This document shows positions 12,342 through 54,970 of a DNA stretch of 64,000 bases, piece by piece. The position numbers and the translations under genes were made by a program. The first letter of the stretch is position 1, and each line of letters begins with the position of its first letter. The stretch comes from Bacteroidales bacterium (GTDB lineage: Bacteria; Bacteroidota; Bacteroidia; Bacteroidales; UBA932). The notes below the pieces were generated by a model that did no database searches, was not told the DNA's origin, and saw nothing but the letters and a program-made list of their open reading frames with translations. The stretch is taken from assembly GCA_017509755.1 (NCBI GenBank), contig JAFWOY010000027.1, forward strand, positions 1,983 to 65,982, written 5' to 3'.

Positions 12342-13814
12342 ATGAAATCATTGCGCTATACCCTGGCAGCAGCGGTTCTCCTGCTGGCCCTGCTGCCAGC
12401 CTTCGCCCAGCGAGGCAGTCAGCGTCCCCGGACCCCTGAACAGGACTTCCTGGACGCCATGTTTGACCATATCAAAGGCGTTGAAATATTCGATTGTGTC
12501 CGCATCCTCTCCGATTCCACACTGTTCCAGGGCCGCCTCAGCGGCTCTCGGGGCATGCGCCGGGCCGTGGACTGGGTCAGTTCCCGTTACGAGGAAATCG
12601 GCTTGGAAAAAGTTCCTGGCCTTTATGGCTATGACTATTCGTACCCGGTGGAGTGCACGGAGGTGACAGGACCGTGTGAAGTATCTGTTGACGGTCGTGT
12701 CTGCACTTGGGCCCTGGAATGGTACGCTGGAGGCACATCTGCCAACGGAGTAGCGGAAGCAGAGATCGTCTTTGCCGGTTTTGGCGTTTCAGCACCGGAA
12801 CTGGGTTATGACGACTATGCCGGCATCGATGTGCGGGGCAAGATCGTGTTGATAGAAGGGGAGACCCCCAACACCAGTCGCAACGACGATACGCTCCGCA
12901 TCTGGTATCCGTACACACTCCACCAGTATAAGGTGGCTAATGCGGTCGCCCACGGGGCCATCGGAATGCTCTATCGCTGGGTTCCCGGTCCGAACAACGG
13001 CTACGATCCTTCTTTCGTGTACGCCTATGTGACTGACGAACTGGCCGATGAGATTGTGGCCGGAAAGGCGGACCATTTCCAGTCGCTGATCCGGGAGCTC
13101 CGGAGCAAGAAAAAAACCGCCTCCTTCGCCACCGGCAAGAAAGCCCGGATCCAGATGACGATGACGCACCGGACCAATGCTTTGGGGCATAACCTGCTGG
13201 GTATGGTCAAAGGCAGCGATCCGGAACTATGCGATGAGTATGTGATCCTGTCGGCCCACTTGGACCATCTGGGCATGATTCCCTATCACATCGCCGGGGC
13301 CAATGACAACAATTCATCGACCGCCTGCTTGCTGGCTGTCGCTAAAGCGCTGCAGGCCAGCAAGGTCAAACCGAAGCGCAGTGTCATTTTCCTGTCGCTC
13401 GACGGCGAGGAAGCAGGCCTGACAGGCAGTTTGTATCTGACCGCCCATCCCGTAGTGCCGGCCGACAAAGTCAAGTTTATCCTGAATCTCGAACAGATCG
13501 GTATCGGCAGGGCTTTTTCCGTTGGATACAAATACGATGCTCCGGAAATCATCGACTATGTGAAAGAAGCCAACGAAAAATACATCCACAGACCCTTGTC
13601 GTTTTACCCCAACCGCTATGTGACGCGGCCGCGTACCGATGGCGCCGTGTTTATGAAAAACGGCTATCCAACCGTTGATTTCTATTCGGTCGGCGGGCGG
13701 TCTTATTATCATGAACCGCGTGACAGCTGGGAAATCCAGGATCCGTCTACGTTGCAGGATGCGGCTCGAGCGCTTTTCTGGAGTGTGATCAATGCCGCCA
13801 ATGCTGTTAACTGA
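12342..13814 (+). CDS. M28 family metallopeptidase (secreted)
   Basis: Signal peptide. M28 metal-ligand pattern SAHLDHLG, GANDNNSSTACLLAVAKAL, LSLDGEEAGLTGS. Confidence 0.8.
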   Translation: MKSLRYTLAAAVLLLALLPAFAQRGSQRPRTPEQDFLDAMFDHIKGVEIFDCVRILSDSTLFQGRLSGSRGMRRAVDWVSSRYEEIGLEKVPGLYGYDYSYPVECTEVTGPCEVSVDGRVCTWALEWYAGGTSANGVAEAEIVFAGFGVSAPELGYDDYAGIDVRGKIVLIEGETPNTSRNDDTLRIWYPYTLHQYKVANAVAHGAIGMLYRWVPGPNNGYDPSFVYAYVTDELADEIVAGKADHFQSLIRELRSKKKTASFATGKKARIQMTMTHRTNALGHNLLGMVKGSDPELCDEYVILSAHLDHLGMIPYHIAGANDNNSSTACLLAVAKALQASKVKPKRSVIFLSLDGEEAGLTGSLYLTAHPVVPADKVKFILNLEQIGIGRAFSVGYKYDAPEIIDYVKEANEKYIHRPLSFYPNRYVTRPRTDGAVFMKNGYPTVDFYSVGGRSYYHEPRDSWEIQDPSTLQDAARALFWSVINAANAVN

Positions 13815-13864
13815 TAGGCCATGACGCCCAGAAGGATCTCTTTTGACCGATGGCAGGTGGCTGC

Positions 13865-16840
13865 TTACTTGTATAGCACCGTCGACACTGTCGAGTCGTA
13901 TTGGAAATTCGCGATGGATTGGCCGTTTTTCAGCCAGATTACAGATAGGGTAGGATTGTTGGTGCAATTCAGATAAGACAACGAGGCATTATTGCTGACA
14001 TCGAGGATGGTCAAACGGTTGTTAGCGCAGTGGAAGTTTTTTAGGAAAGGGCTGCCGCTGACGTCTAAAACAGATAGCTGGTTTCCTCCGCAATAAAGAT
14101 TGACCAACGCACTTTTATTGCTGACATCTAATTCTTTGAGAAGATTGTCGTTACACTCGATATCATAGATTCCGGGATTCTGGCGTAAATCGATGGCAGA
14201 AATCTTGTTTTTGCTGAAGCGAAGGAATTCAAGCTTGGGATTATGACTGACATCCAGGGCGGTCAATTGGTTTTGATTACATTGGAGGCTTTGCAATTCT
14301 GGATTATGACTTAAGTCCAAACCTGTCAGGAGTCCGCGAGCCCGATTAGAAATACTCCTTTGAACAATAATCCTATCTTCTTCATTTTTGTAAATACGGC
14401 TTGCCTCAAAGATTTCACCGCGACATTGCAGATAGCACAGGTACGCATTGTGTGAAAGATCCAATTCTTTTAGGTAGTTAGCTCCGATATCAAGGGTCGA
14501 GAGAAGAGGGTTCTGGCTTAAATCCAGGGACACGAGGTCGTTGTAATAGAGATCTAGTAAAAGCAATTGAGACAGCGGCGTGACATCCAATTCGGTCAGA
14601 TGGCTATAGCTGAGTGTCAGGTATTTTAGTTGGGTGAGTGGCGTCAGGTCCAGAAGGGTCAGGTTCGTATGTGGCGCTTGCAGCCGTGTCAGCCGGGTTG
14701 CTTCACCAAAGAGAAGCTTTTTAATCGGGTTCGCACTACAAGAAAGAGTTTGCAGGTTGCTGTTCTCGGACACGTCCAATTCGACCAATTGATTGAAGTC
14801 ACATTCTAAAACAAGAAGATTGGGGTTATGGGATACATCCAGCGAGACCAACTTACCTGTACATCCACTTGCCTGGGTATACTCGGTCCCGCAACAAATG
14901 AGTTCGCGCAGATTCGGGAAAAACCGAATTTCGGAAATGGAAGTGATCTCGTCCGTACAAATGGATATCTTTGTGATGGCTTCACGCTCGCTTATGGACA
15001 GATGACCATCTTTGTCGGTATCGAAATAAGCAAATAAATAGGTCCTGAAGAATGGATCGGCAACAGGAAAATCCGGATCGTCATCAGGTATATTGCCCTC
15101 TTTAAATGCGATCTTCGAGACCTCTTCATCATACTGCAGGGATATCGACTGTACAGTAAAAAGCCATATTGTCTTCAAGTAAGGATTATTGAAGCACGTG
15201 AGAATACGAAGAGCCAGATTGCCCGATACATCCAGCTCAGTCAGTTGGTTGTCTTCGCAAAGGAGGGCTGTCAGATTAGGGTTTTGACTGACATCCAGCC
15301 TGCTAAGCTGGTTATTGTTGCAGGCCAGCGTCGTGAGGCCAGGGTTGTTCCGTACATCCAACGCGGACAACTGGTTACATTGGCAGGACAGAAATGCAAG
15401 TTTCGGGTTTTGCGAAACATCCACCGAAAGCAGTTGGTTATTATCGCAATTGAGATACGCGAGAGAAGGGTTTCCAGATAAATCCAACTCGGTAAGTTCT
15501 CCGCGACCGCCACCGTCAGGATCGGTTGTACCGGAGCAGATCAATTTCGTGAGTCGAGTGAAATGCTTGACCTCTGTGATCGATCGGATGTTGTCGGTAC
15601 AAATGTCAATGGTGTCAATGGCTTCTACCTCTTCTTTCGATAACCAGTCATTCTTATCTTTGTCGAAGGAAGACAACAAATACGACCTGAAATTCGGATC
15701 GTCAATAGTGATATTAAGATGTGGAATGTCCGTTCCGCGAAATAAAACCGTAGCGATATCGGTGTCATATTGGAGGGAAACCGGTTGCCCCTTGCATAGC
15801 CAAATCTGGGCCAGCAGCGGATTATCGGAACAATCCAGTTCAGCCAGTACCGGATTGTTCGAAGCATCCAGACTGGTCAGCCGGTTGTTCTGGCAATGTA
15901 ATGTTTCCAATAACGGATTGGCGCTGATGTCCAGCGTATCAAGCGAACCTTGACCGGGGGCGGAACCTTGGCAGAATAGCGATTTCAACAAAGGCATCTG
16001 TCGGATTTCAGCGACAGAAGAGATACTGTCCGTACAAACGCGAATTGAAGTAAGTTGACCGAGTTCCCGATAGGAGAACGCGCCATCCCCGTTCAAATCG
16101 TGTTTTTCTGTCAGGTACCGTTCAAAGACAGGATCGGCGATAGGGGCAGGGAAATCTTCCGTACACGTCAAGGACAACGCAGAGGGACTATAGGCATACA
16201 CTTCGTTAGCGGTCTTCTCAGCGTTCTCCGCATATGCTCTGAAATAGTAGGTTTCACCGAATTCCAGTCCGGGAATTCGGGCAGTGAGTATAGAATCCTC
16301 TTCCAACGCGCAGGGTATCCGGTTCTTTTTCATTTCTTTCAAGTCGGGGGTCTTTCCATAGCAAAACCCCGTTTCATTGACGGGCCGGCCCCCATCATCC
16401 AATAGCACAGCGGTCAGGCGACCTTTCTGAAACGAAACCTCGGAGAGTAGCGCTGCGGATGTGGTTGGCATCTGCCGGGTAATCTCTTGGGAATATTTCT
16501 TTCTCAGTGTACTGGCCAGATAAGAGCGGAATACATACTTCATACCCGGTTTCAATTGGAGCGTGCAAGAGAAAGATGTCTCACTGTCTTTGGGTGGGTT
16601 GATAATCAGGGTATCTGCTGTACCGGAGAAAGCGTTTTCGGCAATCTCGAATCCATATTCGACAATATCTGGACGGGGTGTATAGGATCCCGACAACTGG
16701 ATGAACAGACGAGAGGGCATTTCCGGACCAAAACTGATGGTTGGTGGATTCGGCTCATTAGAGGGTGCAACCGGATCGGGCAGGCAAGACTGCAGAACCA
16801 AACTGAGGAATAGAATCAGAAGTCGGGAAAGCGCTTTCAT
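13865..16840 (-). CDS. Leucine-rich-repeat surface lipoprotein with three tandem DxDxDG-loop + LRR modules
   Basis: Lipobox LVLQSC. ATG at 16840 (the ORF-track start 16846 is TTG). Many LDVSxNPxLxxLxCxxNxL repeats. Three modules each open with ADPxFRxYL...D.D.DG...E...I.ICTD and close with IWLxxGQ..SLQYD. Confidence 0.85.
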   Translation of the reverse strand: MKALSRLLILFLSLVLQSCLPDPVAPSNEPNPPTISFGPEMPSRLFIQLSGSYTPRPDIVEYGFEIAENAFSGTADTLIINPPKDSETSFSCTLQLKPGMKYVFRSYLASTLRKKYSQEITRQMPTTSAALLSEVSFQKGRLTAVLLDDGGRPVNETGFCYGKTPDLKEMKKNRIPCALEEDSILTARIPGLEFGETYYFRAYAENAEKTANEVYAYSPSALSLTCTEDFPAPIADPVFERYLTEKHDLNGDGAFSYRELGQLTSIRVCTDSISSVAEIRQMPLLKSLFCQGSAPGQGSLDTLDISANPLLETLHCQNNRLTSLDASNNPVLAELDCSDNPLLAQIWLCKGQPVSLQYDTDIATVLFRGTDIPHLNITIDDPNFRSYLLSSFDKDKNDWLSKEEVEAIDTIDICTDNIRSITEVKHFTRLTKLICSGTTDPDGGGRGELTELDLSGNPSLAYLNCDNNQLLSVDVSQNPKLAFLSCQCNQLSALDVRNNPGLTTLACNNNQLSRLDVSQNPNLTALLCEDNQLTELDVSGNLALRILTCFNNPYLKTIWLFTVQSISLQYDEEVSKIAFKEGNIPDDDPDFPVADPFFRTYLFAYFDTDKDGHLSISEREAITKISICTDEITSISEIRFFPNLRELICCGTEYTQASGCTGKLVSLDVSHNPNLLVLECDFNQLVELDVSENSNLQTLSCSANPIKKLLFGEATRLTRLQAPHTNLTLLDLTPLTQLKYLTLSYSHLTELDVTPLSQLLLLDLYYNDLVSLDLSQNPLLSTLDIGANYLKELDLSHNAYLCYLQCRGEIFEASRIYKNEEDRIIVQRSISNRARGLLTGLDLSHNPELQSLQCNQNQLTALDVSHNPKLEFLRFSKNKISAIDLRQNPGIYDIECNDNLLKELDVSNKSALVNLYCGGNQLSVLDVSGSPFLKNFHCANNRLTILDVSNNASLSYLNCTNNPTLSVIWLKNGQSIANFQYDSTVSTVLYK

Positions 16841-16842
16841 GG

Positions 16843-17700
16843 TCAAAACAATACGCCAACACCCGCGCTGGCTTCGAGATACTTGAACTGATTGGTCCGA
16901 ATACCGGCTGATACGGCAACCGCATTCAATCGAAGCAGAAGACCGAATTCCAACTCAATGCCGGAGAAAGAATGTGTGCTGACACGAGCATACTGGTATT
17001 CCCCAGGGGCCATATACATTTCCCAGGCAAGGACACGGCTGCCATAACCACCTCCAGCATAAAGATATAGGGGGACAGCTAATTGTCTCAGGTAGCCCCC
17101 GGTAATGGCAAAGCGGCTTTTTCGGGAAGCTCCCGTGAACCAGGCTGTTTCGCCATCGACAGTTCCATCTCCTGAACAGTTGGATGATGGTTTGAGCATA
17201 CGATGGAAATCGCTTACGATATGGACATATCCGCCGTTTATTGTGCAAAGACCCAACATCAGCCCATAGGAAGTATGGGGCAGATTATACTGCACGGTCG
17301 GCAAAATGAGGGTATGGATGGGATTTGCGATGTCCAGAGAGAGGGTATAACCATAAGCGGGCATCAGCGGCTTGTCAAGCGGGAAAACAAAGTGTAGAAC
17401 CGCATAGCCGTCTACGCTGATATCAATCCATTTAGAATTGGCCGGTATGAAAACGACCCATTCTCCCGGGTATTGCAAGGGCTCTCCAATGATATTGCCG
17501 GCAAAATGAACGGAATCTTCTGAGGAGAGATAGATACTGATCATAGCAGAGGGTTGGCCGTTCTGATCATAGACCGGGGATGTCTTTGCCCTCAGTTCAA
17601 AAGGATTTACTTCAAAACTTCGTACGAGAAGGCGCTTTTCCTGGGCATGCAGGAAAAAAGGCAGGAAAAGGAATGCCAGCAGGAAAACAGCCTGTCTCAT
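16843..17700 (-). CDS. Exported protein, N-terminal beta-sandwich-like domain + C-terminal OM beta-barrel-like domain
   Basis: Signal peptide MRQAVFLLAFLFLPFFLHAQ. The C-terminal half has alternating hydrophobic strands and Gly/Tyr-rich turns and ends in ...SAGVGVLF (terminal Phe, typical of OM beta-barrels). ATGA overlap with the upstream gene. Confidence 0.7.
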   Translation of the reverse strand: MRQAVFLLAFLFLPFFLHAQEKRLLVRSFEVNPFELRAKTSPVYDQNGQPSAMISIYLSSEDSVHFAGNIIGEPLQYPGEWVVFIPANSKWIDISVDGYAVLHFVFPLDKPLMPAYGYTLSLDIANPIHTLILPTVQYNLPHTSYGLMLGLCTINGGYVHIVSDFHRMLKPSSNCSGDGTVDGETAWFTGASRKSRFAITGGYLRQLAVPLYLYAGGGYGSRVLAWEMYMAPGEYQYARVSTHSFSGIELEFGLLLRLNAVAVSAGIRTNQFKYLEASAGVGVLF

Positions 17701-18695
17701 TTGCCGATTCTGAAACTGTTGATGTCAATAATCTGGTTTTCGTCAAGCGCGCGGGTCCGTTCTTCGTCCATCCAGTAGGGTTGCCAGGTCCTGACGTGGA
17801 TCTGCGGTCTGTCTTCGTCCCTAAAATCCCAGAGCATAAACAAATAGCCTTCATCGGAATAGGGGATACCTCCGTCATAGAGAGATTCATAGCCCTGTTT
17901 TAGAAGAACCCCATAATAACCTTCAATGGAAGGATGCTTTGTTACTCGTATGTCGCTGAAATCAACCCGGATATATTTCGTATGCGGAAAAATGTGCTGT
18001 TTCAGTCTGTCGAGATACGCTTTTTTGGAATGCTTTGTATAAGCGATTTCATCGTTTATAATCGCAGTCCTGTCGCCGCGTTTCCTTTGAATAACCTTCC
18101 CGGTAATGATCAAAGCATCGTCGCTGAACACCATGTCCAGAAAATGGATATCCTTCTTGCAGTATGCTGTACGGAATTGCTCGACATAATCGAGGATCAT
18201 CTGCCGATGCCGCAGGTCGCCCACTTTACTACCGTCCGTCATGATTCTCCTATACAAATGGGAACCGATGGCCATATTGATGCGGGTAATGCGGCCGGAA
18301 CCGTCCATTTCGATCACAAGTTCCTGATAGTCATCGTTTCCTTGAAGATCCCGCATTTGGATTGGTACGTTCCTGACCTGCCAGCCGCCATTGTAGGTCC
18401 CGATAATCCGTTCCACGACCTTCGCTTCGTCACAATGAAAAGGCATGTTATCCCATAACACGATCACAGAAGTTTCGGCGTCTTTCGTAATGGAGACCGC
18501 TGAAAAATCGGGTATGGCGCCTTTCATGTCATAAGCCCGGTTAAATTCTGTCAGCAGCAGGGAAAGGTTGGCGTTGATCTTGTCTTTCAGCGGGCCGTTT
18601 TCCAGGCCGTCATTAATCAGAAAGGTAACCGTCTGCGCAGATAGTGCGGTATGTATGATGAGAAGCGCGACAAGCAGAAAGAAAGATCGTTTCAT
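17697..18695 (-). CDS. Exported hypothetical protein (C-terminal NTF2/SnoaL-like fold suspected)
   Basis: Signal peptide MKRSFFLLVALLIIHTALSAQ. RHRQMILDYVEQFRTAYCKKDIHFLDMVFSDDALIITG resembles the start of NTF2-like (DUF4440-type) domains. ATGA overlaps at both ends. Confidence 0.7.
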   Translation of the reverse strand: MKRSFFLLVALLIIHTALSAQTVTFLINDGLENGPLKDKINANLSLLLTEFNRAYDMKGAIPDFSAVSITKDAETSVIVLWDNMPFHCDEAKVVERIIGTYNGGWQVRNVPIQMRDLQGNDDYQELVIEMDGSGRITRINMAIGSHLYRRIMTDGSKVGDLRHRQMILDYVEQFRTAYCKKDIHFLDMVFSDDALIITGKVIQRKRGDRTAIINDEIAYTKHSKKAYLDRLKQHIFPHTKYIRVDFSDIRVTKHPSIEGYYGVLLKQGYESLYDGGIPYSDEGYLFMLWDFRDEDRPQIHVRTWQPYWMDEERTRALDENQIIDINSFRIGK

Positions 18696-19396
18696 TGTAG
18701 CATTTGCATGATAGTTTTGTCAACAAAAATCCAATAAGCAGGAACCATCCTATATTTCATCGGGTCCGTCAACGATCCGGATCGTATATTTGTCCTTACC
18801 CCCATGGAATCTCTTGGTGACATGATCTCGATGATACGGTCTGAAGAGTGTTCGTAATAGACCAGAAATCCGCCATCCACATATTCCTGGGGTGTCTCGA
18901 TCGTAACCGGTCCCGACATGATATGAGCTTTTGTTCGGGATGTTGGGAGCAATTCCTGAATGTCTGACAGAGTCTCGATTTCGGGCAGCTGGCGGAAAAA
19001 CTCCAGAATGGCATTTCGACTAACATGATCGAATGCCGCCGCTTCAATCTGTTCCAACTCCCGGAGATGCGACTTGCTGATATAAGCAATTGTCCGGTAA
19101 TGATTAGGATCTTTTCTCATCGTGATAAGCTGGATCACCTCTGGCGGACAAGCACTGGCTCCACGAATATACACAAAGCCATTCTCTTTCAGATAATGAG
19201 CCAGACGGTCGTTCAAGTCAAGCGTGGCTTCGACAACGGATTCTTCAAGGTCGGGCATCGTGCAACTGCCATACAGGTAGTCCGGATCAAGCTTGATAGC
19301 AGCCATCCGCGCAAGAAGCGAGTCTTGCGACTGTCCGGCTGCATACTGGAAAAAGAACATTCCGGCAAGAATAAACAGGATTAGTACTTTACGCAT
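18692..19396 (-). CDS. Exported hypothetical protein (234 aa)
   Basis: ATG 19396 gives the signal peptide MRKVLILFILAGMFFFQYAAGQ. The longer ORF-track start at 19510 would overlap the TIR gene by 130 nt and lacks a signal peptide. Confidence 0.65.
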   Translation of the reverse strand: MRKVLILFILAGMFFFQYAAGQSQDSLLARMAAIKLDPDYLYGSCTMPDLEESVVEATLDLNDRLAHYLKENGFVYIRGASACPPEVIQLITMRKDPNHYRTIAYISKSHLRELEQIEAAAFDHVSRNAILEFFRQLPEIETLSDIQELLPTSRTKAHIMSGPVTIETPQEYVDGGFLVYYEHSSDRIIEIMSPRDSMGVRTNIRSGSLTDPMKYRMVPAYWIFVDKTIMQMLQ

Positions 19397-20301
19397 TTTC
19401 CCAGCTGTTTGTCCAACTCGATGTCGGGATAATCGCCCAACTTGATGAACGCTATTTTTTCTCCATCGGCATGGTGCCATTCGCCGTAATTCAGGTGACC
19501 GCGAGTCCAATTTCCAATAATATAATCCCCGACTTCCGCAGTTCGTGCCTGAGGATCGTGCATATCGATACGCCGACGGTGCATAAAGGTGTAAGTGCCA
19601 CTTCCATCGGGCAATCCGGATATGATTGTCCCGGTAAACGTATCGGTGTCAGGGCCCGTACGGGGCTGTTCCTTGACAATTACTATTTGTGGCGGCCTGT
19701 TTCGGATCACTACGGGTTTTTCCACCACGAAGGTATCGAAGGCAGGAGGTGATGAATTCACAGGCTCCGATGCAGGCCGGTTATTTTTGATCCAAGGGGG
19801 CAACAACAAGAAGGCTGCGAGTGCCAAGATACCCAACAAAGGGAGGATGAAAAGCCGTGCTTTATTGCCTTTAGCGGGCGATTCTGAAATGCTGACAGGT
19901 AAATTGCCATTCTGCTGCTTAAGAATGATCTTCTCAAGCACGGCAAAGTCTTTCTTGAAGTCCCCCGAATAGGGGATTCGCTGTTTATAAGAAAGGTAGT
20001 ATTCCAGATCATCGTCGAAGGGCGTATCATCCAGGCAATAGGGGAGAATGAATTTGGAACTGTTGAAGGCCAGGTTGATTTCTGTCTTTACATGCTCCGA
20101 TTGGCTCGCGTTCTTGGAACAGATGACGACAACGAGGAGGGCCGCACGGATTGCACGTGTGATTTCGCCCGCATAAGAGACGCCTGATTGAATGTCGCGA
20201 GGTGCAATCCAGCAGGAAACATCATGTGACTCTAGCCAGTTGCAAAGGGATTCGGCAATCTTCCGGTCCCGCCGTCCATAACTGATGAAGACTTTGGTCA
20301 T
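19381..20301 (-). CDS. TIR domain - single TM - MORN-repeat membrane protein
   Basis: ATG 20301 forms ATGA with the upstream stop. KVFISYGRRDRKIAESLCNWLESHDVSCWIAPRDIQSGVSYAGEITRAIRAALLVVVICSKNASQSEHVKTEINLA is a TIR_2-type pattern. TM helix LFILPLLGILALAAFLLLPPWI. MORN-like YIIGNWTRGHLNYGEWHHADGEKI. Confidence 0.8.
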   Translation of the reverse strand: MTKVFISYGRRDRKIAESLCNWLESHDVSCWIAPRDIQSGVSYAGEITRAIRAALLVVVICSKNASQSEHVKTEINLAFNSSKFILPYCLDDTPFDDDLEYYLSYKQRIPYSGDFKKDFAVLEKIILKQQNGNLPVSISESPAKGNKARLFILPLLGILALAAFLLLPPWIKNNRPASEPVNSSPPAFDTFVVEKPVVIRNRPPQIVIVKEQPRTGPDTDTFTGTIISGLPDGSGTYTFMHRRRIDMHDPQARTAEVGDYIIGNWTRGHLNYGEWHHADGEKIAFIKLGDYPDIELDKQLGKCVKY

Positions 20302-21290
20302 GCAAAATCTTTCCAGCTCAATTTCTTGCCGCAGGAAGGGCAGTATTTCATATTCGGCGCTACCGGCCCTGAACAATGGGGACATTTGTAGCTCTCTCCA
20401 CGTGAGAGGTTGAATCCCAGCTTCTTGACGAGTCTCAGCGCGTCGAAGGCGGTCCGTCTGTCATATTCTTTTTCTGATTCTGGCAAGTCGGAGTAGGGGA
20501 CCATGTCAGGATTCTGCTTCAGCCTGTCATCCCGGAGGGGGCCATAGCTCCAGCCTTCTTTCTTGCGTTCGGCAGCCCATACTTCATGGGTATTTTCCGC
20601 GATGGTTTCAGTCAGTTCAAGCAATTCATCATCGAGCAATACATCTGTCAAATCAATCGGATGTGGATCATAGGCCAAGGAATCGATATCCGAACTAACC
20701 AGATAACGCCGTGAGGCGCGCCATGCTTCCAGGAAATCTTCGATCAGCCAGTCCATGTCTTTTTCTTCAGCCGGATCGTAGATTTTTATCAATCCGCCGA
20801 CCAAAGAGAGCGGGACGACTGCATGAAAACGGTTATCCCGTGCGATGACCGCAATCATTTTCACCCGGCGGAGCATATTGATTCGAATGTCTTCAACCGT
20901 ACAATCATATTTGCGGCAAACTGACAGACCGTGTTGTTCCAGAAGACGGCCGATATTATACAAAGGCATGCCTTCCTTTCGTAGCCAGCGGTTCGTGCTG
21001 ATATCGATGGAAAGAGTATCATCATCTACCAGATAGTCACGCAAGATCCGTTGCTCGCATTGGATGTCGCACAAGTTGTCCTCTGAGGCGGCGGCTAATT
21101 TCGCCATCGGAATACCGGCGCCTTTCGATTCTTCATATCGGTCAATGCAATTGATGATGAACAAAGTCTCACGCAGCGATTCGTCATGTGCAAGTGCTTC
21201 AACCACTCGCATTGTCTCCTCCGGGGTTGTCGTTCCCTCCGTATAGGCCGCTAACAGCTCGTCGGATATTTCGTAGCGATTATTTTTCAT
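20298..21290 (-). CDS. Anti-sigma-like N-terminus + C39/papain-like segment + RyR domain + zinc ribbon (soluble)
   Basis: ATG 21290 overlaps the sigma gene stop by 11 nt. ISDELLAAYTEGTTTPEETMRVVEAL is anti-sigma-like. TETIAENTHEVWAAERKKEGWSYGPLRDDRLKQNPDMVPYSDLPESEKEYDRRTAFDALRLVKKLGF is a near-consensus RyR domain. CPHCSGPVAPNMKYCPSCG is a zinc ribbon. Confidence 0.8.
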   Translation of the reverse strand: MKNNRYEISDELLAAYTEGTTTPEETMRVVEALAHDESLRETLFIINCIDRYEESKGAGIPMAKLAAASEDNLCDIQCEQRILRDYLVDDDTLSIDISTNRWLRKEGMPLYNIGRLLEQHGLSVCRKYDCTVEDIRINMLRRVKMIAVIARDNRFHAVVPLSLVGGLIKIYDPAEEKDMDWLIEDFLEAWRASRRYLVSSDIDSLAYDPHPIDLTDVLLDDELLELTETIAENTHEVWAAERKKEGWSYGPLRDDRLKQNPDMVPYSDLPESEKEYDRRTAFDALRLVKKLGFNLSRGESYKCPHCSGPVAPNMKYCPSCGKKLSWKDFA

Positions 21291-21852
21291 AATACTTGAC
21301 ATCTTTTTGTGCAACTTGCGTGAATTCGGCGATAGCACGCCTTTTAATGTTGTAAAGTGTCGCAGCCGTGATCTTCATTTCATTGGCGAGCTTTTCCGGC
21401 TCCATGTCATTAAGGATCAATTGTTGAAGAACATAGGCGTACCTTTTGTTTTTCATCCGGTGCAAGATCCGGAGCATGTCTTTCCTCGCAGTATCGCGCG
21501 TAGGGCCATCGGCCAATTTTTCTTCTGCTACTTTGTCCAAAAGAGCATCCTGGCTACGTTTCTCTGCCAGATTGTCTCTTTTTTTGATAAAAAAACGAGT
21601 TGCACTGACTTTTATCCAGCCAAACAGCGAACTACGATCCCGAATTTGACGGAGTCTGTAGCCATCGTTCTCAAGCAGGTAGGCATAGAACTCACTGACA
21701 GCTTCTTCATACTCGACCGGGTAAGGGAAAACATAATTCAGAATGTTCATTAACAGGAGTTTGCAAGATTTTTCCTTATCGGAAAAAAAGAAATGCCGGG
21801 TAATCCGTTCATCCTTGGAAAGCAGTCCTTCGATGATTTCGGTTTCAGTCAT
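21280..21852 (-). CDS. RNA polymerase sigma-70 family (ECF-like) sigma factor
   Basis: 190 aa from ATG 21852 (ORF-track start 21903 is TTG). Region-2-like SSLFGWIKVSATRFFIKKR. Region-4 HTH-like RYAYVLQQLILNDMEPEKLANEMKITAATLYNIKRRAIAEF. Confidence 0.75.
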   Translation of the reverse strand: MTETEIIEGLLSKDERITRHFFFSDKEKSCKLLLMNILNYVFPYPVEYEEAVSEFYAYLLENDGYRLRQIRDRSSLFGWIKVSATRFFIKKRDNLAEKRSQDALLDKVAEEKLADGPTRDTARKDMLRILHRMKNKRYAYVLQQLILNDMEPEKLANEMKITAATLYNIKRRAIAEFTQVAQKDVKYYEK

Positions 21853-21990
21853 AGAGTCGTTTCTCAATTTTATGCAATTTACGACATATTTTGTGAAAAA
21901 CAAAATTTATACAATTTATATTATGTTAAATAGTATTTATCGCGTGCCCCTCCTGCGTTCGATTTGATTCGTGTGACGCAAATTTTTCGT

Positions 21991-21998
21991 TACCTTTG
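21991..21998 (+). promoter_or_regulatory. Candidate -7 element TACCTTTG immediately upstream of rarA
   Basis: TAnnTTTG match ending only 5 nt before GTG 22004. If used, it implies a leaderless or near-leaderless mRNA. Confidence 0.3.
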
Positions 21999-22003
21999 TC
22001 ACA

Positions 22004-23305
22004 GTGAAAAATCAAAACGATATTCCGTTGATTCCGTTGCCGGAAAGACTTCGGCCCCGGTCTCTTGACCAATATGTAGGTCAAGAGCATCTTGTCGGCC
22101 CTGGTGCAGTTCTCAGGAAGATGATTGAGTCTGGCAATGTTTCTTCATTCATTCTCTGGGGTCCTCCAGGTGTTGGAAAGACGACGTTGGCTCGGATTAT
22201 CGCCAACCAGTTGAAACGTGAATTCTTCACGCTCTCAGCCATCAGTTCCGGTGTAAAAGATGTGCGTGAGGTCATTGACAAAGCCAAGTCCGGCCGTATG
22301 TTCGCAACGGCGGGCGCACCTATTCTGTTTATTGATGAGATCCACCGCTTCAACAAGGCGCAGCAAGATGCTTTACTGGGTGCTGTGGAGAGTGGCTTGA
22401 TAGTCTTGATTGGCGCCACGACGGAGAATCCTTCGTTCGAAGTGATTTCCCCGTTGCTTTCCCGTTGCCAGGTATATGTCCTCAAGAGTCTTGATGTCAG
22501 CGACTTGGATATCCTTTTGCAACGGGCCCTGACGGAAGATGTTTATCTGAAAGAGCGCCAGATCCATGTGGTCGAAAAAGAAGCTTTGTTCAGATTCAGT
22601 GGCGGCGATGGTCGTAAATTACTGAATATCATTGAGATAATAGTTCAGTCTTTTCCGGAGGATGCGACAATTACCATTGATAATAAAGTCGTTACCAATC
22701 GTCTGCAAGAGAATATCGCACTTTATGACAAGAATGGCGAACAGCACTATGATATCATTTCGGCCTTCATCAAGAGCATGCGTGGCAGCGATCCCAACGG
22801 GGCCATCTATTGGATGGCGCGCATGCTGGCCGGCGGTGAGGATCCGTTGTTCATTGCCCGCCGTATGCTGATCCTGGCCTCCGAAGATGTGGGGCTGGCG
22901 AATCCAAACGCGGCCCTGCTGGCGGAAGCGTGTTTCAATGCCGTGCATCAGATCGGCATGCCCGAAGCGCGCATCATCCTGGCCGAAACCTGTATCTATC
23001 TGGCGACTTCTCCGAAGAGCAATGCGTCGTATCTTGCAATCGATGAGGCGCTCGCATTGGTCAACAGTACAAGCGACGCGCCGCCCGTCCCCCTGCATCT
23101 GCGCAACGCCCCTACCCAATTGATGAAAGACCTGGGCTACCACAAAAATTACAAATACGCGCACGATTTCGAAGGCAACTTCGTCGATCAGGAATTCCTC
23201 CCCGACATCCTCCACGGCCACAAATTCTACGATCCCGGCAACAACGCCCGCGAAGCCGACATCCGTCGCCGCCTCCAGTCCCTCTGGAAGAAATACAATT
23301 ACTAA
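22004..23305 (+). CDS. rarA: Replication-associated recombination protein A (AAA+ ATPase)
   Basis: RPRSLDQYVGQEHL, Walker A GPPGVGKTT, Walker B ILFIDEIHRFNK, and MgsA C-terminal domain HYDIISAFIKSMRGSDPNGAIYWMARML. GTG start. Confidence 0.9.
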   Translation: MKNQNDIPLIPLPERLRPRSLDQYVGQEHLVGPGAVLRKMIESGNVSSFILWGPPGVGKTTLARIIANQLKREFFTLSAISSGVKDVREVIDKAKSGRMFATAGAPILFIDEIHRFNKAQQDALLGAVESGLIVLIGATTENPSFEVISPLLSRCQVYVLKSLDVSDLDILLQRALTEDVYLKERQIHVVEKEALFRFSGGDGRKLLNIIEIIVQSFPEDATITIDNKVVTNRLQENIALYDKNGEQHYDIISAFIKSMRGSDPNGAIYWMARMLAGGEDPLFIARRMLILASEDVGLANPNAALLAEACFNAVHQIGMPEARIILAETCIYLATSPKSNASYLAIDEALALVNSTSDAPPVPLHLRNAPTQLMKDLGYHKNYKYAHDFEGNFVDQEFLPDILHGHKFYDPGNNAREADIRRRLQSLWKKYNY

Positions 23306-24856: not shown

Positions 24857-25531
24857 CTATAAAACAGCCTTTCGGAAGGGAGCGCTCGCTACTTGCGCGC
24901 CCTTGTTGACATAGAGTGTGATCAGCGAGTCAGCAGCAGGGGCAGCCAGGAGAAACGTATGGGAAACGCTGTCATGCGCCGTATCGATCAGGCGCAGCTT
25001 CTCGGCCGCATCATATCGCCACTTGCCGTGCCCGAACAAGAAGACATACTCCCCTTTTCCCTTTGCCGCCAATTCAGGCAGCGGTTGCGCGAAATGCCAG
25101 GAGACGGTCTTGCCGTCGCCATTGAACCAGAGGGTATCTCGATCGCAGACAAAGGTACCGTTATGTGCGGCCGGAAAGGGCGTTCCCGGATCCGGCGGCG
25201 TATGGGTATAGGAGCAACTGGAAAAGAAACCGATCAGCAGGATGACCAACGGAATGACGATGAAAATCAGGACGAATATCCAGCATCCGATTTTCCGGCC
25301 TTCTTTTTTAGGCGCGGCCTTTCCTTCCGGGCGAGACGGCGCCTTTTTCGGCTTCGGTTCGGGTGTTACTTCCCAGGTGGAGAGCGTAACCACGCCGGGC
25401 GCATCGGAAGCGTGGACTACATCTTTATCACCGGACTGCGGGGTAACCGCGGCCGTCACGCGCGTGCCGCAATTCGCGCAGAATTTGGCGCCCGGTTCCA
25501 GTTTTGCGCCGCAGTTTGTACAGAATGCCAT
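24857..25531 (-). CDS. Zinc-ribbon - TM - extracytoplasmic domain protein
   Basis: ATG 25531 (ORF-track start 25546 is TTG). CTNCGAKLEPGAKFCANCG zinc ribbon, Lys/Pro-rich linker, TM helix IGCWIFVLIFIVIPLVILLIGFF, then a ~110-aa C-terminal domain. Confidence 0.7.
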   Translation of the reverse strand: MAFCTNCGAKLEPGAKFCANCGTRVTAAVTPQSGDKDVVHASDAPGVVTLSTWEVTPEPKPKKAPSRPEGKAAPKKEGRKIGCWIFVLIFIVIPLVILLIGFFSSCSYTHTPPDPGTPFPAAHNGTFVCDRDTLWFNGDGKTVSWHFAQPLPELAAKGKGEYVFLFGHGKWRYDAAEKLRLIDTAHDSVSHTFLLAAPAADSLITLYVNKGAQVASAPFRKAVL

Positions 25532-25538
25532 AATCTGA

Positions 25539-28500
25539 TTAACCAATATTAAACAATGTATCCCCCAACTCTTCCAGCAGTGAATCGCGCGTATAGCCCA
25601 TTCTAGTCAGCATCGCATCCAGTTCCGAAAGTGTACATCCCTTGCTGCCGGGATCGAAGAGTTTCTCACATTCGCTGATAGCCGTACGAAGACGCATCGA
25701 AATCTTACTGCCGCCATTTTCCCCGGCACGGGCGATATCGCGCGGGTTGATGTAATTCTTGAATTGCTTCATGCCCTGCCGGAGTCCTTCCATATATTTG
25801 TTGACGGCTTCCGAACGGAGCGTCAGACGTTCGGTCTCATCCAGGACATTCTCGGCCTGCTTCAGAAGGGAATCTCCCTCCCTGAACCACTCTTTTCCCT
25901 TGTAGGTAACGGCATCCGCCACCTTTTTCGGATCGGACAGTTGCATATGCACCTTCTGGGGATCCATCAGGATGTCGATATCCTTTCCGTAGCTTTCAGG
26001 ATGGTTCAGCACATCTTCGATGTTGGTCTGGTCGATGGATTTGGCAAACTTGTTGGACAGTTCTGCACTCTTGCTCCGGAAGCCCAAGCCCGCATCCGCA
26101 ATCTGATGGTTGTAGATCTGGGTGGTCATATTCTGGTCGAAATACACCTTTTCTCCCTTCGCATTGCGGTAGAAATAGGTGACGTCCCGGTCGATGGTGA
26201 CCTTCTTGCCTTTCCGCATCAGGTCCAGGTCGGCATTCTTGCTCGCATTGAATACCTCAATCCGATCGGCAGGGATTCCGTAGATCTGGCTCAGTGTCTT
26301 CTTGGCATTGAGGTCCGCTTTCGCGTACATTTCCCCCAGCGTCTCATTCAATTCTTTGCGGGTAAGGTCCAAGGAATCGTCCGCATAGTTCTGGAGCAGA
26401 TACATCGCCTGCTTGTTTTTCTGGCATTTGATGACCAGCTGGTTCTTCAGCTTCAGGTTCTCGGGACTCATCGGATTCATGTGGTACAGTTCCACAGCCG
26501 CCTGTAAGTCCTTGACATCCTGCAGCGCACGCTTCCGGCCGTAATCCACCGCATCGTCCAGCGGATTCGGCGTTTTCTGGGACTTGACCAGGTCCATGAA
26601 CTGGTCTGCATTCCGGCTGGCGGCATCCATGGCATTCTTCGAATTCTGGATGGCGTTCTTGGTGACCTTTCCTTTGATGGAACTGAAGAACTCACCGGCC
26701 TCCGCCTTCATCTCCTGGAAGGCGTCTTTCAGGCTATCCTTAGTAATACCGGCCTTGGCGGCCATCTCCCCCACCTTCTTCATTCCGAAGGCCATTCCCT
26801 TCTCCATCAGATACTCCCGGCCAACAATCTTGGCGCCGACGCAGAAACCGCCCCAAACGCTGTCACCGCCCTTGTCCACATATTCCTTCATGCTCCGCGC
26901 TACCTCCAGGGTCGTGAAGACGACATCCGCACAACCCAAAGTAGCCACACCCAAGGCGAGACGGCTGAAGAAGCCCATGGAATCTTCGACCTCTTTCGCT
27001 TTGTCGAAGAAACAGGAGACAAACAGGAGCACCTCATCCGCAATCGTCAGCGGCTTGACGTCTCCGTTGGCCCCGAAACTCTCTCCGGAAACGACACCGT
27101 TGAAGATCCGCTTCACGGTCTCGACCTGCTGGGGATCGTAACCATAGTCGGCACTGTAGCCGTCCACGATCGTATCGATGAACTTGTCGAGCGAGAAGAG
27201 CTGCCGGTACATGTTCAGATAATGGATCTGGCTCTGGATATGAACCAACTGCTCGGAAATGTGCTGATCCCGTTTGAGGGCCTCCATATATTCCGATGTC
27301 GGCAGGTCACGCCGGGGCTGGGAACACAACAGGACGTCCGCATACCCATAATAATCACGCCCGTTGAAGGAAGTCTTCAACATGATCTGGGCCTTGATGC
27401 GGGAAGGAGCGTCAAGCGTGGCCTGGCAGCAGCGGAAGAAACAGAGCCGGGCCCGGTCTTCGATTGTTCCACTGCTTACGTCACACTGGATGGCAAGTTT
27501 GTCCACCATATCCTGCTTGGTGTCATCCAAGGCCACAATCTTGTAGTCAGTCGGGACTGGCGCAATCTCAAGTACCTTGTGCTCATTCTCGTCATAATCA
27601 AAGAGCGTAATCCGGGCCTTGGTCTCGGCGGGCACATAGGTTTTCCCGTCCATGCCTTTCGCGGCAAAACGCCGGGTCTGGTGCCGCGAGGGGTCATATT
27701 CCTCTATAAAACACTTGACCTCATAAATGCCAGCCAGTGCAAGACCCATCTGGAAGCGCAATACTTCCAGCTCGTTCTCGATGGCGCTCCCCTTGCCGCT
27801 CCGGGCCGTCACTTTCAGGGAGTAGCGCTCGAATTCACCAGGCATCAGGGTCGGAACTTTCTCTCCCGGCTTTGGAGGAATAAATTTCTCTGTTATGATA
27901 GCCTCGTGCAGTCGTGTCTCCTTGTTCCACGTCGTTTTCACTTCATAGCGCCCACCCGGAATTACTGCTTTGACCTGGGCTTCCTCATCCATGCCGACAA
28001 CCAGGAACGGCAAATGGATGGGTTTGTCGTACCCCACGGGAATTGTCAGGTTATCCTGGCCGAAGACAATCGCCCCGGCCCTGATTTTGAAATGCACGTG
28101 GTTCGTATAGGATCCTTTCCCACCGGCCAGCCGGAAGGTTACGACACCTTCTTCCGGTGCTTTGTCCGTCTCCGGGGCAACGACATCTGCGGCTTTCCAT
28201 CCTTCATGAAGTGCCGCGTGGGGAGAGACTTGCAGATAATTGTCGCCCGTGACGGTCAACATGGAAGTCAGCTGAAGGTCGGGCGTCTCTTCGCCCTGTG
28301 ACGGAATCTTCACGATCTGGGCATAGACCTGACGAGGCCCGTTGCCGGGAATGAGCGTATCGCCAAACTCCTTGTACATCCGCATCGCATAACGGACAGC
28401 CGGCTGATTGTCTTCTTCCTCTTCTTCTTCCGGTTCTTGATTGCCGGCATCTCCGTCGTCCGATGGCGCGGCCCGGCGTTTTCTCCGTCTGCGGATTGCA

Positions 28501-53593: not shown

Positions 53594-54970
53594 TTAATAT
53601 TGAACATTTACATTGACATTTTCTGAACCCATTGCCCCGCCCTCGGTATTGATTCTGATGCCGGAGCCGCTGACGGTCTTCGAGGAGCGTATATGGTCGG
53701 CATATGCACTCCAACCATTGGCGGATTGATAATCATCGACGGACTCTTCCGGCACGATGATCATCATATTCTCCGGTGTACCGGCAAAAGCGTTGGCACC
53801 AAGCGCCGGTGGAGTGCTCGGATTCACATAGACTTCGACCAGTGAACTGCATCCTGAAAACATATTGTCAGGTATCACCGAAATCTGTCTGGGAATGACA
53901 ACACTGGTCAAATCTGACTGGTTCGTGAAAAGCGGCAGTGTGGTCAGGCCATAAAAGAATTCCAGTTCCTCGAAAGCAAGAATGCCTGCCGGAAGTGCTG
54001 AAGGAAAAGTGGTAACGCCGGCAATCTCTACCATTGAGAGTTTTCCATCCCCGTTCTTGTCGAAATTCGACAGACAGTAGGCCCGGACACGCGAATCCTC
54101 AAACGAGAGGTCGTCGTCCAGAAAACCGGACACATTCGTGTTGTAGGCGTATCCGTTCTGCAATCGCGCCGACGTGAAGGTTGTCTCAAACGAATTCGTA
54201 GTAGTTTCCAATTTGATTGACCTCGTTGCGGACGCGGAAGCCGGAACAGCCACATACAGTGTTTTCACGCCTGCATCTGAAACAGATTGCGAATCAGGTG
54301 AAAGCACGATATTCCCGGTTGTCGGTGTGATATCGAATCCGGTCTTTCCGGCATTGATTTTCAAGTCAAAGCAATTGGTCACATTCGTCAGAGTGACGTG
54401 TTCGATCTTGGCGGAAGCCGGCATATCAGACATTCCCATCATAATGTAACTCATCAAGAAACTGAAAGATATCGTCGCATTCTGGAAAGAACCGCTACCA
54501 GCCTTTGCAACAGAATAAACGCAAAGCGGAACAGCCCCGGTCGTGCCCTTCTGGGCTGACATATCCACGTGAATCCCAGAAAAAGTTATCTCGGATGTAT
54601 TCTCCTGTGCCGGATAGAAATAGGCAATCTGATCGCCCTCATTCACCGTCCCCTGCAGCGACCCAGAGAATGTCGTAGATGTCCCGCTGGAGTTGGCTGT
54701 CAGCCATCCGCCCAGCAGTTTTCCCGATGTCAGGTTGACCACAGAAAGTTTATCTCCAGCGGACCAGTTGATACGGACTGTATACTGCGTAGAGGCCTTC
54801 GTGCCCACGTCTTCTTCAGCATTTGTCAACACGGGAAGTTCAGGCAGATTCGCCGTCAAAGACAAACTGAAGGTGCCTTCTCCCAAAGGAATCGACTCTG
54901 CCTCAAAGACGTTGTCACTACAGGATCCTAATACAAACAGTAACGCAAAAATGATGTAATACCGTCTCAT
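53594..54970 (-). CDS. Lipoprotein: pilin-like N-terminal part + DxDxDG loop + BspA-type LRR C-terminus
   Basis: ATG 54970 gives MRRYYIIFALLFVLGSC. GTKAS motif ~45 aa after the lipobox. FDKNGDGKLSMVE. C-terminal VVIPRQISVIPDNMFSGCSSLVEVYVNPSTPPALGANAFAG (BspA-like LRR). Confidence 0.75.
   Translation of the reverse strand: MRRYYIIFALLFVLGSCSDNVFEAESIPLGEGTFSLSLTANLPELPVLTNAEEDVGTKASTQYTVRINWSAGDKLSVVNLTSGKLLGGWLTANSSGTSTTFSGSLQGTVNEGDQIAYFYPAQENTSEITFSGIHVDMSAQKGTTGAVPLCVYSVAKAGSGSFQNATISFSFLMSYIMMGMSDMPASAKIEHVTLTNVTNCFDLKINAGKTGFDITPTTGNIVLSPDSQSVSDAGVKTLYVAVPASASATRSIKLETTTNSFETTFTSARLQNGYAYNTNVSGFLDDDLSFEDSRVRAYCLSNFDKNGDGKLSMVEIAGVTTFPSALPAGILAFEELEFFYGLTTLPLFTNQSDLTSVVIPRQISVIPDNMFSGCSSLVEVYVNPSTPPALGANAFAGTPENMMIIVPEESVDDYQSANGWSAYADHIRSSKTVSGSGIRINTEGGAMGSENVNVNVQY

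Follow-up and report, generated by a model that had tools for sequence, protein, structure and literature searches.

A Bacteroidales operon of sigma factor, RyR-domain and membrane TIR genes: a candidate envelope-to-transcription signalling unit

We analysed a 64,000-nucleotide stretch of a Bacteroidales genome (assembly GCA_017509755.1, contig JAFWOY010000027.1; hereafter the window, whose positions are used throughout) and describe a seven-gene minus-strand operon within it, g1 to g7, that looks like an undescribed envelope-to-transcription signalling pathway. The operon appears to be a horizontally mobile, Bacteroidales-specific signalling unit of two modules. Module A (g1-g2) pairs an extracytoplasmic function (ECF) sigma factor with a soluble protein that combines anti-sigma-like helices, a C39-like peptidase domain, a ryanodine-receptor-type (RyR) domain and a zinc ribbon, and the pairing is near-obligate. 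Module B (g3-g7) joins a membrane TIR protein to four predicted exported or surface proteins.

On its gene order, domain identities, conserved catalytic and candidate ligand residues, gene linkage and mobility as an island, all of which are observed, we infer a model in which module B would be the input and module A the output. The product of g3 would cross the inner membrane once, with its TIR domain facing the cytoplasm and its MORN-like domain facing the periplasm. It is co-inherited with the putatively periplasmic g4 and g5, the probable outer-membrane protein g6 and the predicted surface lipoprotein g7, which carries leucine-rich repeats (LRRs); through g4 to g7 the TIR receptor would be linked with the outer membrane and the cell surface. 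An envelope event would activate the TIR domain, which would then convert NAD+ to an ADP-ribose-derived nucleotide, most likely an isomer of cyclic ADP-ribose (cADPR). Meanwhile g2 would hold g1 via its N-terminal helices, and its RyR domain, of the R12 type, would bind the TIR product; binding would free g1, plausibly through RyR dimerisation and/or cleavage by the C39-like cysteine peptidase, and the freed g1 would change transcription of its regulon.

We offer the core of this model, from TIR to RyR to sigma factor, tentatively, at slightly less than an even chance. We favour it because of the adjacency of sigma and RyR genes, the strong RyR domain with invariant candidate ligand residues, the linkage of TIR genes to module A and the reciprocal linkage of RyR genes to module B, and because the C-termini of the TIR proteins are diversified, the anti-sigma/C39 module is nearly always fused to RyR, and the CalpL-CalpT-CalpS system offers a precedent. 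A pathway from nucleotide second messenger, here with a TIR generator, through sensor-protease to sigma factor is of a known kind; unusual are the RyR reader, the membrane-receptor form of the TIR protein and the envelope cassette. Literature searches on RyR, TIR, sigma/anti-sigma, ECF, Thoeris and MORN found no description or name of the system, and PADLOC, run on the seven proteins and ten partner families, returned partial TIR-domain matches only, with no model matching any non-TIR component. An earlier note, made from the sequence alone, had taken the combination for one not yet described and had proposed PADLOC as a check; no paper or PADLOC model names a sigma-RyR-TIR operon.

Operon layout and gene neighbourhoods

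The genes and the region upstream of them are as follows.

21853-21932, minus strand: candidate AT-rich leader/promoter region upstream of g1, 80 bp, conserved with the operon
21280-21852, minus strand: g1, 190 amino acids, predicted divergent ECF-type sigma factor
20298-21290, minus strand: g2, 330 amino acids, soluble anti-sigma-like / C39-like peptidase / RyR / zinc-ribbon protein
19381-20301, minus strand: g3, 306 amino acids, TIR / single transmembrane segment / MORN-like protein
18692-19396, minus strand: g4, 234 amino acids, predicted exported protein, fold without known match
17697-18695, minus strand: g5, 332 amino acids, predicted exported protein, weak NTF2-like signal
16843-17700, minus strand: g6, 285 amino acids, predicted exported protein, candidate small outer-membrane barrel
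13865-16840, minus strand: g7, 991 amino acids, LRR lipoprotein with InlJ-type cysteine-ladder units and EF-hand-like caps

The open-reading-frame listing and direct reading of the junctions reproduced exactly the seven genes, starts and six junctions of the earlier note: g1 and g2 overlap by 11 nt, g2 and g3 meet in an ATGA, g3 and g4 overlap by 16 nt, g4/g5 and g5/g6 each share an ATGA, and a 2-nt gap separates g6 from g7. These overlaps, ATGA junctions and the gap support the tight coupling of the genes into one unit that the note had argued for. The 11-nt sigma/RyR overlap and the RyR/TIR ATGA were seen again in the distant relatives L001, L006 and L089, and among relatives with Prodigal-called genes the sigma/RyR junction was the same overlap or a 2-nt gap. 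The leader is 99% identical to that of locus L093 and ~90% identical to those of L006 and L008; in an alignment of upstream regions it appeared as a short AT-rich block common to close relatives only. The earlier note had the sigma factor auto-induce the operon, but among the relatives the sigma gene mostly does not open its operon, and in most loci it is translationally coupled to the gene upstream, on which ground we dropped the idea of a general autoregulatory promoter upstream of the sigma genes. A sigma-70 promoter and terminator scan over the operon was uninformative, as its consensus is not applicable to Bacteroidota and its in-gene matches were near shuffle level; tRNA and Rfam scans gave no match in the window.

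A scan with the g2 alignment of one genome per GTDB species found 433 relatives, of which the best 80, almost all from gut and rumen Bacteroidales metagenome-assembled genomes (MAGs), were analysed together with eight loci from exact look-ups. The gene immediately upstream of the g2 homologue is a g1 homologue in 84-86 of these 88 loci. An iterated TIR profile detected 93 TIR proteins in 62 of the 88 loci; of the 41 loci whose flanks each extend for at least 8 kb, 34 have a TIR gene no more than 10 kb from module A. TIR and RyR genes share a strand in 84 of 88 cases (p 1.6e-20), and a median of 2.6 kb separates them. The TIR domain is N-terminal in 78 of the 93 proteins and is followed by at least one transmembrane segment in 63. 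The C-terminal parts of the linked TIR proteins vary widely (MORN-like, Lcl_C, beta-propeller, FGE-sulfatase, Sel1/TPR, or four transmembrane segments), the pattern of diversified sensors feeding one reader, and other sigma/RyR loci have quite different TIR proteins and partners from those of the window. Stand-alone RyR proteins of 96 amino acids occur near module A in 32 loci, and TPR and WG-repeat proteins and BspA-type LRR proteins are further recurrent neighbours.

A second set of 35 loci sharing the C-terminal domain of g3, drawn from look-ups and a metagenome scan, defines module B. Its order is a TIR-transmembrane-MORN-like gene, a variable gene of 205-380 amino acids, homologues of g4, g5 and g6, and one or two giant LRR or Big_2 proteins; the variable gene is missing from the window operon. 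A gene with an RyR domain lies within 6 kb of the cassette in 20 of the 35 loci, in three architectures: the sigma plus anti-sigma-RyR pair (8 loci), membrane-RyR proteins (6) and small RyR proteins (6), the last two encoded immediately upstream of the g3-type TIR gene. Where at least 2.5 kb of upstream sequence was available, 13 of 25 loci had an RyR gene near the cassette; among 43 unrelated soil TIR loci (356 kb) there was none. The full seven-gene order recurs in the diverged loci L089 and L095-L097, in which the TIR protein is ~50% identical to g3.

Because 12 of the 25 g3-type cassettes are without a nearby RyR gene and g4 to g7 travel with the TIR gene, the seven-gene block is best described as two modules, often but not always joined. 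Co-conservation of the genes as a block had been proposed as a check on the operon; the sigma/RyR pair, its TIR linkage and the recurrent seven-gene order bear it out, but the block is not an indivisible system.

In the same neighbourhoods we also observed a family of ~680-800-residue, channel-like membrane proteins with N-terminal transmembrane segments, a TrkA_N/RCK-like domain and a C-terminal RyR-like domain (for example, L062:10966-13293, L051:7307-9460 and L101:180-2213). Two such families are present in 28 and 23 of the 88 loci. An adjacency count places them right before the sigma gene in 28 of 83 loci, often with translational coupling, and elsewhere they directly precede g3-type TIR genes.

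The sigma factor and the RyR protein

The sigma-factor call for g1 made in the earlier note stands on its family: g1 alone matches TIGR02937 below threshold (E 1.4e-3, covering model positions 9-160 of 165), yet each of the 40 family members aligned matches this model independently (best 4.2e-16), because of which we read g1 as a divergent ECF sigma factor (sigma-70 group 4) by sequence. Sig70_bacteroi1, a Bacteroidetes ECF subfamily, is matched by 16 of the 40, and Sigma70_r2 and Sigma70_r4_2 by some relatives. Region 4 of g1 aligns to FliA (sigma-28), and no membrane segment is predicted.

For g2, more than 1000 homologues were found. The protein has no predicted transmembrane segment, and its AlphaFold2 (AF2) model (pLDDT 76) begins with three helices and a disordered linker, which are followed by an alpha/beta domain, the RyR domain and the ribbon. 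Four parts can be distinguished.

21129-21269, minus strand: three-helix anti-sigma-like N-terminus, g2 residues 8-54, with the motif ISDELLAAYxEGxTTPEE
20688-21077, minus strand: C39-like papain-fold peptidase domain, g2 residues 72-201, with C74, H156 and D172
20403-20672, minus strand: RyR (R12-type), putatively nucleotide-binding domain, g2 residues 207-296
20319-20390, minus strand: C-terminal zinc ribbon, g2 residues 301-324

This agrees with the four-part reading of the earlier note, of which the anti-sigma part is the weakest piece. The N-terminal motif is visible in a 19-sequence g2 alignment, and the AF2 helices span residues 10-17, 23-35 and 37-54. A sub-threshold zf-HC2 match (E 0.026) was obtained for g2; among 35 relatives zf-HC2 was matched by 13 and RseA_N by 3, all below Pfam cut-offs, and the helices of g2 have no visible zinc ligands. 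A sequence-profile search with the anti-sigma/C39 half gave no significant PDB-chain match. Binding of g1 by this N-terminus is a possibility that the resemblance to anti-sigma helices raises.

The peptidase domain was not called by Pfam in g2 itself, for which a weak NCBIfam C39-type match was the only one (3e-4); Peptidase_C39_2 (PF13529) is matched by 26 of the 35 relatives (best 1.6e-8), and Foldseek aligned the g2 model with PCAT1, an ABC transporter with a C39 peptidase domain (E 1.5e-5). In the 19-sequence alignment C74, C78, E79 and H156 are invariant, YDP is near-invariant and D172 nearly so. g2 therefore retains the Cys, His and Asp of a C39-like papain fold, and C74 is the likely nucleophile. 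The zinc ribbon was recognised by several sub-threshold Pfam zinc-ribbon matches and by a CxxC...CxxC pattern readable in the sequence. Tails of the same kind were seen on M48 metallopeptidases and small transmembrane proteins of related loci, and PrsW intramembrane proteases recur in sigma/RyR loci (for example, L062:13658-14536, L048:15288-15797, L071:7719-8408 and L045:12121-12834). The shared tail and the PrsW proteases hint at a proteolytic cascade or a shared docking tag.

The RyR domain is clear. g2 matches PF02026 with E 9.8e-30 (103 bits against a cut-off of 27.4), with the block AENxHEVW...YDR in the alignment, and its domain is 53% identical to that of the Bacteroides thetaiotaomicron RyR structure 3NRT (Foldseek TM-score 0.92). 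Foldseek matches also included Repeat12 of human RyR3 bound to ATP or dantrolene. The anti-sigma/C39 family is small: a single-sequence query of 1.84 billion representatives gave 196 clusters at 50% identity, and of 61 representative matches of at least 280 amino acids, 57 have the module fused to RyR. A swap of RyR for other sensor domains in this family, which we had considered, was ruled out by the same count. Some members (P0320, P0340, P0386, P0407 and P0410) have two tandem RyR domains, an arrangement like that of Repeat12 in animal ryanodine receptors, which is pseudo-dimeric; members with one RyR domain presumably form dimers.

What such a domain might bind is indicated by RyDEP, a mycobacteriophage PF02026 RyR/R12-domain protein reported in a May 2026 preprint, in which PF02026 RyR domains of phages were found to bind or hydrolyse 2'/3'cADPR made by TIR proteins (PMC13232231). 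RyDEP residues H75, W78 and D117 bind and cleave 2'/3'cADPR, with H75 and D117 as the catalytic dyad; the adenine is stacked by W78, and H100 touches the phosphates. Of eight phage RyR homologues tested, six formed stable complexes with the signal, two sponge-type proteins bound it at nanomolar affinity, and the ligand residues are conserved across the family, animal RyR included. The study is about viral proteins, and the cellular, sigma-linked family goes unmentioned in it. It lends independent support to the earlier note's idea that the TIR protein signals to the RyR protein.

In g2, H235, W238, N260 and D277 are spaced as H75, W78, H100 and D117 are in RyDEP. H235, W238 and D277 are invariant in 86 of 86 anti-sigma-type relatives, and the equivalent His, Trp and Asp are kept in 31-32 of 32 stand-alone RyR proteins. 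g2 and RyDEP share PF02026, a His-x2-Trp ... Asp constellation of like spacing and a genetic tie to TIR signalling. However, RyDEP is a counter-defence hydrolase or sponge of a phage, whereas g2 is cellular, fused to anti-sigma-like and peptidase domains and encoded in the same operon as a TIR protein, a context that suggests a host-side receptor role for RyR. Nucleotide sensing by RyR/R12 domains was uncovered only in 2026, in phage counter-defence proteins, and here we find a widespread cellular family with His, Trp and Asp spaced as the ligand residues are. If the proposed role is true, the g2 family would be a host-side receptor for TIR signals with a new output, a sigma factor.

The same residues allow for RyR being an off-switch that hydrolyses or sequesters the TIR nucleotide, protecting the cell or resetting the pathway, with the sigma pair cued otherwise and only setting expression of the operon. 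Conservation of the catalytic His and Asp throughout the family and the stand-alone proteins fits this, as do 95-residue stand-alone RyR genes immediately upstream of g3-type TIR genes (L092, L106, L114 and L120), an arrangement typical of antidote or regulator genes. We nevertheless regard it as unlikely: it leaves unexplained why RyR is fused, in 57 of 61 cases, to an anti-sigma-like bundle and a peptidase beside a sigma gene, and most RyDEP homologues with conserved residues bound the signal without cleaving it (PMC13232231). Moreover, hydrolysis and sensing can coexist, as described for the CalpL SAVED ring nuclease (10.1101/2024.05.08.593092).

The closest analogue of a RyR-gated release of g1 is the CalpL-CalpT-CalpS system, a type III CRISPR ancillary system in which an ECF-like sigma factor is stripped of its anti-sigma factor by a SAVED-Lon protease switched on by cyclic tetra-adenylate (cA4) (10.1101/2024.05.08.593097). 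In both, a nucleotide-activated protease would free an ECF sigma factor, but the analogy is functional only. The CalpL signal comes from Cas10, the sensor is SAVED, the protease is a Lon serine protease and the locus is CRISPR-associated; in the operon the source would be TIR, the sensor RyR/R12 and the protease a C39-like cysteine protease, with no CRISPR locus. g2 unites sensor, protease and anti-sigma helices in a single soluble polypeptide, for which cleavage and release are proposed steps. Systems of the FecI-FecR-TonB-dependent transducer type likewise encode an ECF sigma factor and anti-sigma factor with outer-membrane or surface proteins and carry a signal from envelope to transcription. 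Unlike FecR, however, g2 is soluble, with no transmembrane segment and no FecR domain, and the operon has no TonB-dependent transducer; its inner-membrane step would be taken by a TIR enzyme, implying a diffusible nucleotide in place of a protein relay.

The membrane TIR protein and the envelope cassette

The product of g3, for which more than 100 full-length homologues were found, has three main parts.

19912-20301, minus strand: TIR domain, presumably cytoplasmic, with catalytic E74, g3 residues 1-130
19783-19854, minus strand: transmembrane helix preceded by K/R residues, g3 residues ~150-173 (hydropathy scan; AF2 helices 153-173)
19384-19644, minus strand: conserved beta-hairpin domain with two MORN-like repeats, probably periplasmic, g3 residues 220-306

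The TIR domain matches TIR_2 with E 8.7e-20 and ThsB_TIR with 24.1 bits (cut-off 21.2), and by Foldseek it matches the TIR domains of SARM1, SPARTA, AbTir and Bacillus cereus ThsB. The catalytic glutamate is retained in 91 of the 93 TIR proteins of related neighbourhoods. In the family alignment the TIR domain is followed by a variable Pro/Ala/Gln-rich linker, one transmembrane segment, a second variable linker and a conserved 85-residue C-terminal domain. The AF2 model (pLDDT 78.5) is confident for both globular parts, and the highly conserved C-terminal domain reaches pLDDT 92-97. Of the TIR-transmembrane-MORN description given in the earlier note, the TIR domain and the single transmembrane segment after it stand; the MORN match is sub-threshold (PF02493, 12.5 bits against a cut-off of 22.5; 33 of 40 relatives at E<=1, best 0.012), and the repeats and the modelled beta-hairpins are compatible with MORN, not proof of it. 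The internal transmembrane segment after the TIR domain, with no signal peptide, suggests that the TIR domain lies in the cytoplasm. For the same reasons a secreted, host-directed TIR effector of the TcpB/TirS type was rejected.

Thoeris, too, places a TIR protein with a catalytic Glu beside a protein whose domain can bind TIR-made ADP-ribose (ADPR) derivatives. The operon differs in having no ThsA-type effector (SIR2/SLOG or Macro-transmembrane; no PADLOC, Pfam or NCBIfam match), in a TIR protein that is anchored in the membrane, has a probable extracytoplasmic domain and comes with a cassette of envelope proteins, and in its proposed output, a sigma factor of its own where Thoeris uses NAD+ depletion or membrane damage. 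That the usual partners of TIR systems are absent, as had been noted before, holds within the operon (no ThsA-type match in g1, g2 or g4-g7) but not in related loci, several of which have SIR2_2-TIR and Macro-TIR fusions just downstream of the sigma/RyR pair (for example, L082:7728-9110 and L045:5559-6644). These fusions link the wider family to NAD+/ADP-ribose chemistry. Membrane TIR proteins with varied extracytoplasmic domains and envelope partners suggest that TIR enzymes may serve as transmembrane receptors, beyond cytoplasmic phage sensors, and the recurrent pairing of RyR with TIR provides a simple bacterial system for asking whether R12 recognises cADPR isomers.

Within the envelope cassette, signal peptides were read from the sequences of g4, g5 and g6, as in the earlier note, which had also seen an outer-membrane beta-barrel end on one of them. 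That barrel is at most suggested by the C-terminal half of g6, which is rich in Gly and aromatic residues and ends in GVGVLF. Profile searches gave no Pfam or PDB match for g4 or g6; g5 has weak matches to DUF4440 and Cds6_C and to the NTF2-like entry 2r4i (E 0.053), and PDB-chain profile searches with the g4, g5 and g6 alignments returned nothing significant. g4 is co-conserved with the g3-type TIR gene in ~26 loci, g6 is kept in ~20 cassette loci and g5 is the most conserved member (66% mean column identity). The call of g7 as a 991-residue LRR lipoprotein was confirmed by a match to LRR_4 (E 1.1e-25) and a lipobox, LVLQSC, read from the sequence. EF-hand matches were also found in Pfam, and the internalin_J model was matched at E 2.6e-78, below the model's cut-off. 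g7 has at least three repeated units, each an EF-hand-like calcium-binding cap followed by ~21-residue cysteine-ladder LRRs of the Listeria InlJ type, with an Fn3/Ig-like region N-terminal to them and the DNA repeats D1-D4 within the gene. In relatives its position is occupied by LRR or Big_2 giants.

Taken further, the arrangement may resemble a trans-envelope, Toll-like pathway in which a single-pass TIR receptor is gated by periplasmic adaptors, an outer-membrane protein and a lipoprotein of the LRR or Big_2 kind at the surface, and the RyR domain of a self-cleaving anti-sigma protease reads its cADPR-type product and so turns on the ECF sigma factor, an extension that we consider rather unlikely. 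Toll-like receptors likewise have LRRs outside, a single-pass transmembrane segment and TIR inside, and in animals, too, a TIR/cADPR-type signal is associated with an R12-type RyR domain. In the operon, however, the LRRs (g7) and the TIR-transmembrane part (g3) belong to two polypeptides, each in a membrane of its own, and the TIR domain is N-terminal; the RyR domain sits on a sigma-factor regulator, not on a Ca2+ channel, and the resemblance to animal pathways is one of logic only. If this extension is true, RyR would be the physiological receptor of TIR-made nucleotides in cells and the operon a prokaryotic antecedent for the disputed link between cADPR and ryanodine receptors in animals.

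The surface proteins also permit a plainer account. Sigma-controlled surface operons are common in Bacteroidota, and an ordinary ECF pair might here control a variable adhesin operon, with the TIR protein a non-enzymatic scaffold or unrelated and RyR binding a housekeeping adenine nucleotide. The envelope or surface nature of g4 to g7, the exchange of the last gene between LRR and Big_2 giants and the binding of ATP and ADP by R12 of human RyR3 in PDB entries agree with it. We judge it very unlikely, given the catalytic Glu conserved in 91 of 93 TIR proteins, the RyR-TIR linkage, which spans three unrelated architectures on the RyR side and many unrelated C-terminal domains on the TIR side, and the biochemistry by which PF02026 domains bind TIR products (PMC13232231).

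Several points weigh against the TIR-to-RyR-to-sigma model. The partnership of TIR and RyR is frequent, not obligate: besides the 12 of 25 g3-type cassettes with no RyR gene nearby, 7 of 41 sigma/RyR loci lack a TIR gene within 10 kb. Being sub-threshold, and with a profile of the N-terminal half that finds no PDB sequence match, the anti-sigma assignment is weak. The RyDEP residues were mapped onto g2 by spacing, not by sequence alignment, and the fourth ligand position, H100 in RyDEP, appears to be replaced by Asn (N260) in g2 and to be N, H or T across the family. As the invariant His and Asp correspond to the RyDEP catalytic dyad, RyR might destroy the signal instead of transducing it, and RyR R12 also binds ATP and ADP (PDB 6UHH and 9L9B), so that its ligand need not be a TIR product. 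Finally, it is co-inheritance that suggests an envelope complex of g4 to g7 with g3.

The mobile island and its setting

The operon and its leader together form a discrete unit.

13864-21932, no strand assigned: mobile island of 8.07 kb (operon plus 80-bp leader), set off from its flanks by identity and guanine-plus-cytosine (GC) content

The GC content of the operon is 46-49%, against 53-55% in the flanks on both sides. The island is 99.1% identical to sequence in contigs L093 and L094, where the RarA-side flank is only ~95% identical to that of the window, an additional pyrG separates RarA from the operon, and the flank on the opposite side is unrelated. Contig L172 shares the Tricorn-M28 ... 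RarA-MatE frame of the window (97% and 93% identical), with BACON-SusD-SusC-pyrG in place of the operon. Loci L006 and L098 are 90% identical to window positions 19922-21933, covering the sigma factor, the RyR protein and the TIR domain only; identity stops at 19922, just after the TIR domain, and a different transmembrane/periplasmic part and a shorter cassette follow. This breakpoint points to recombination exchanging the sensor half. From the near-identical island in another context and the breakpoint after the TIR domain, we take the unit to be a recombining accessory island whose sensor half is probably exchanged. A search for direct and inverted repeats found only the LRR-coding repeats inside g7, and no integrase, tRNA or border repeats were found at the island.

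The site between the M28 peptidase gene and RarA is itself a swap hotspot (window 13806-22018 compared with L172:11468-18899 and L093:6661-8369). Its variants are BACON-SusD-SusC-pyrG, pyrG plus operon and, in the window, the operon without pyrG; the CTP synthase must therefore be encoded elsewhere in this genome.

Mobility of this kind would also fit an anti-phage abortive-infection island, in which a membrane TIR effector would deplete NAD+ on phage attack sensed at the envelope or a surface receptor, g1 and g2 would do no more than induce or amplify expression, and RyR would register a drop in NAD+ or a rise in ADPR/ATP-type nucleotides as a sign of stress. In favour are the low-GC island at a variable site with a 99% identical copy elsewhere, the nearness of the TIR fold to NADase TIRs (SARM1, SPARTA, AbTir and ThsB), the SIR2-TIR and Macro-TIR fusions of sister loci, the partial PADLOC TIR matches and, at some loci, neighbouring genes of a toxin- or defence-like kind (PIN in L089; AAA/ClpP/Thg1 in L001). 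However, no PADLOC system model matches the non-TIR components, the operon is flanked in the window by housekeeping genes and not by a defence island, and a dedicated sigma factor with adhesin-like LRR/Big_2 surface proteins fits environmental or host sensing at least as well. We think such a function improbable, although it would overlap with the TIR-to-RyR-to-sigma model instead of excluding it. As the family is common in gut and rumen Bacteroidales, the trigger, which may be phage, host or neighbouring microbes, is relevant to microbiome biology.

An origin of the island in a phage or prophage was rejected: the g2 family had one match in the 2.9 million viral contigs of IMG/VR, and no phage genes flank the island. 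g2 and its relatives are encoded in Bacteroidales chromosomes or MAGs, unlike a phage-encoded anti-defence gene.

Two further features of the window lie outside the island. A second low-GC patch (43-45% GC) at 53594-57030 holds three minus-strand open reading frames; a 469-residue product matches BspA-like/TpLRR LRR surface proteins, a 342-residue product has no PDB relative, and the patch may be another acquired surface-protein island. At 24857-25546 on the minus strand, 3 kb from the island, an open reading frame of 229 amino acids encodes an N-terminal CxxC...CxxC zinc ribbon (MAFCTNCGAKLEPGAKFCANCG) followed by a transmembrane segment; this ribbon is of the same kind as the tag on components of the sigma/RyR loci.

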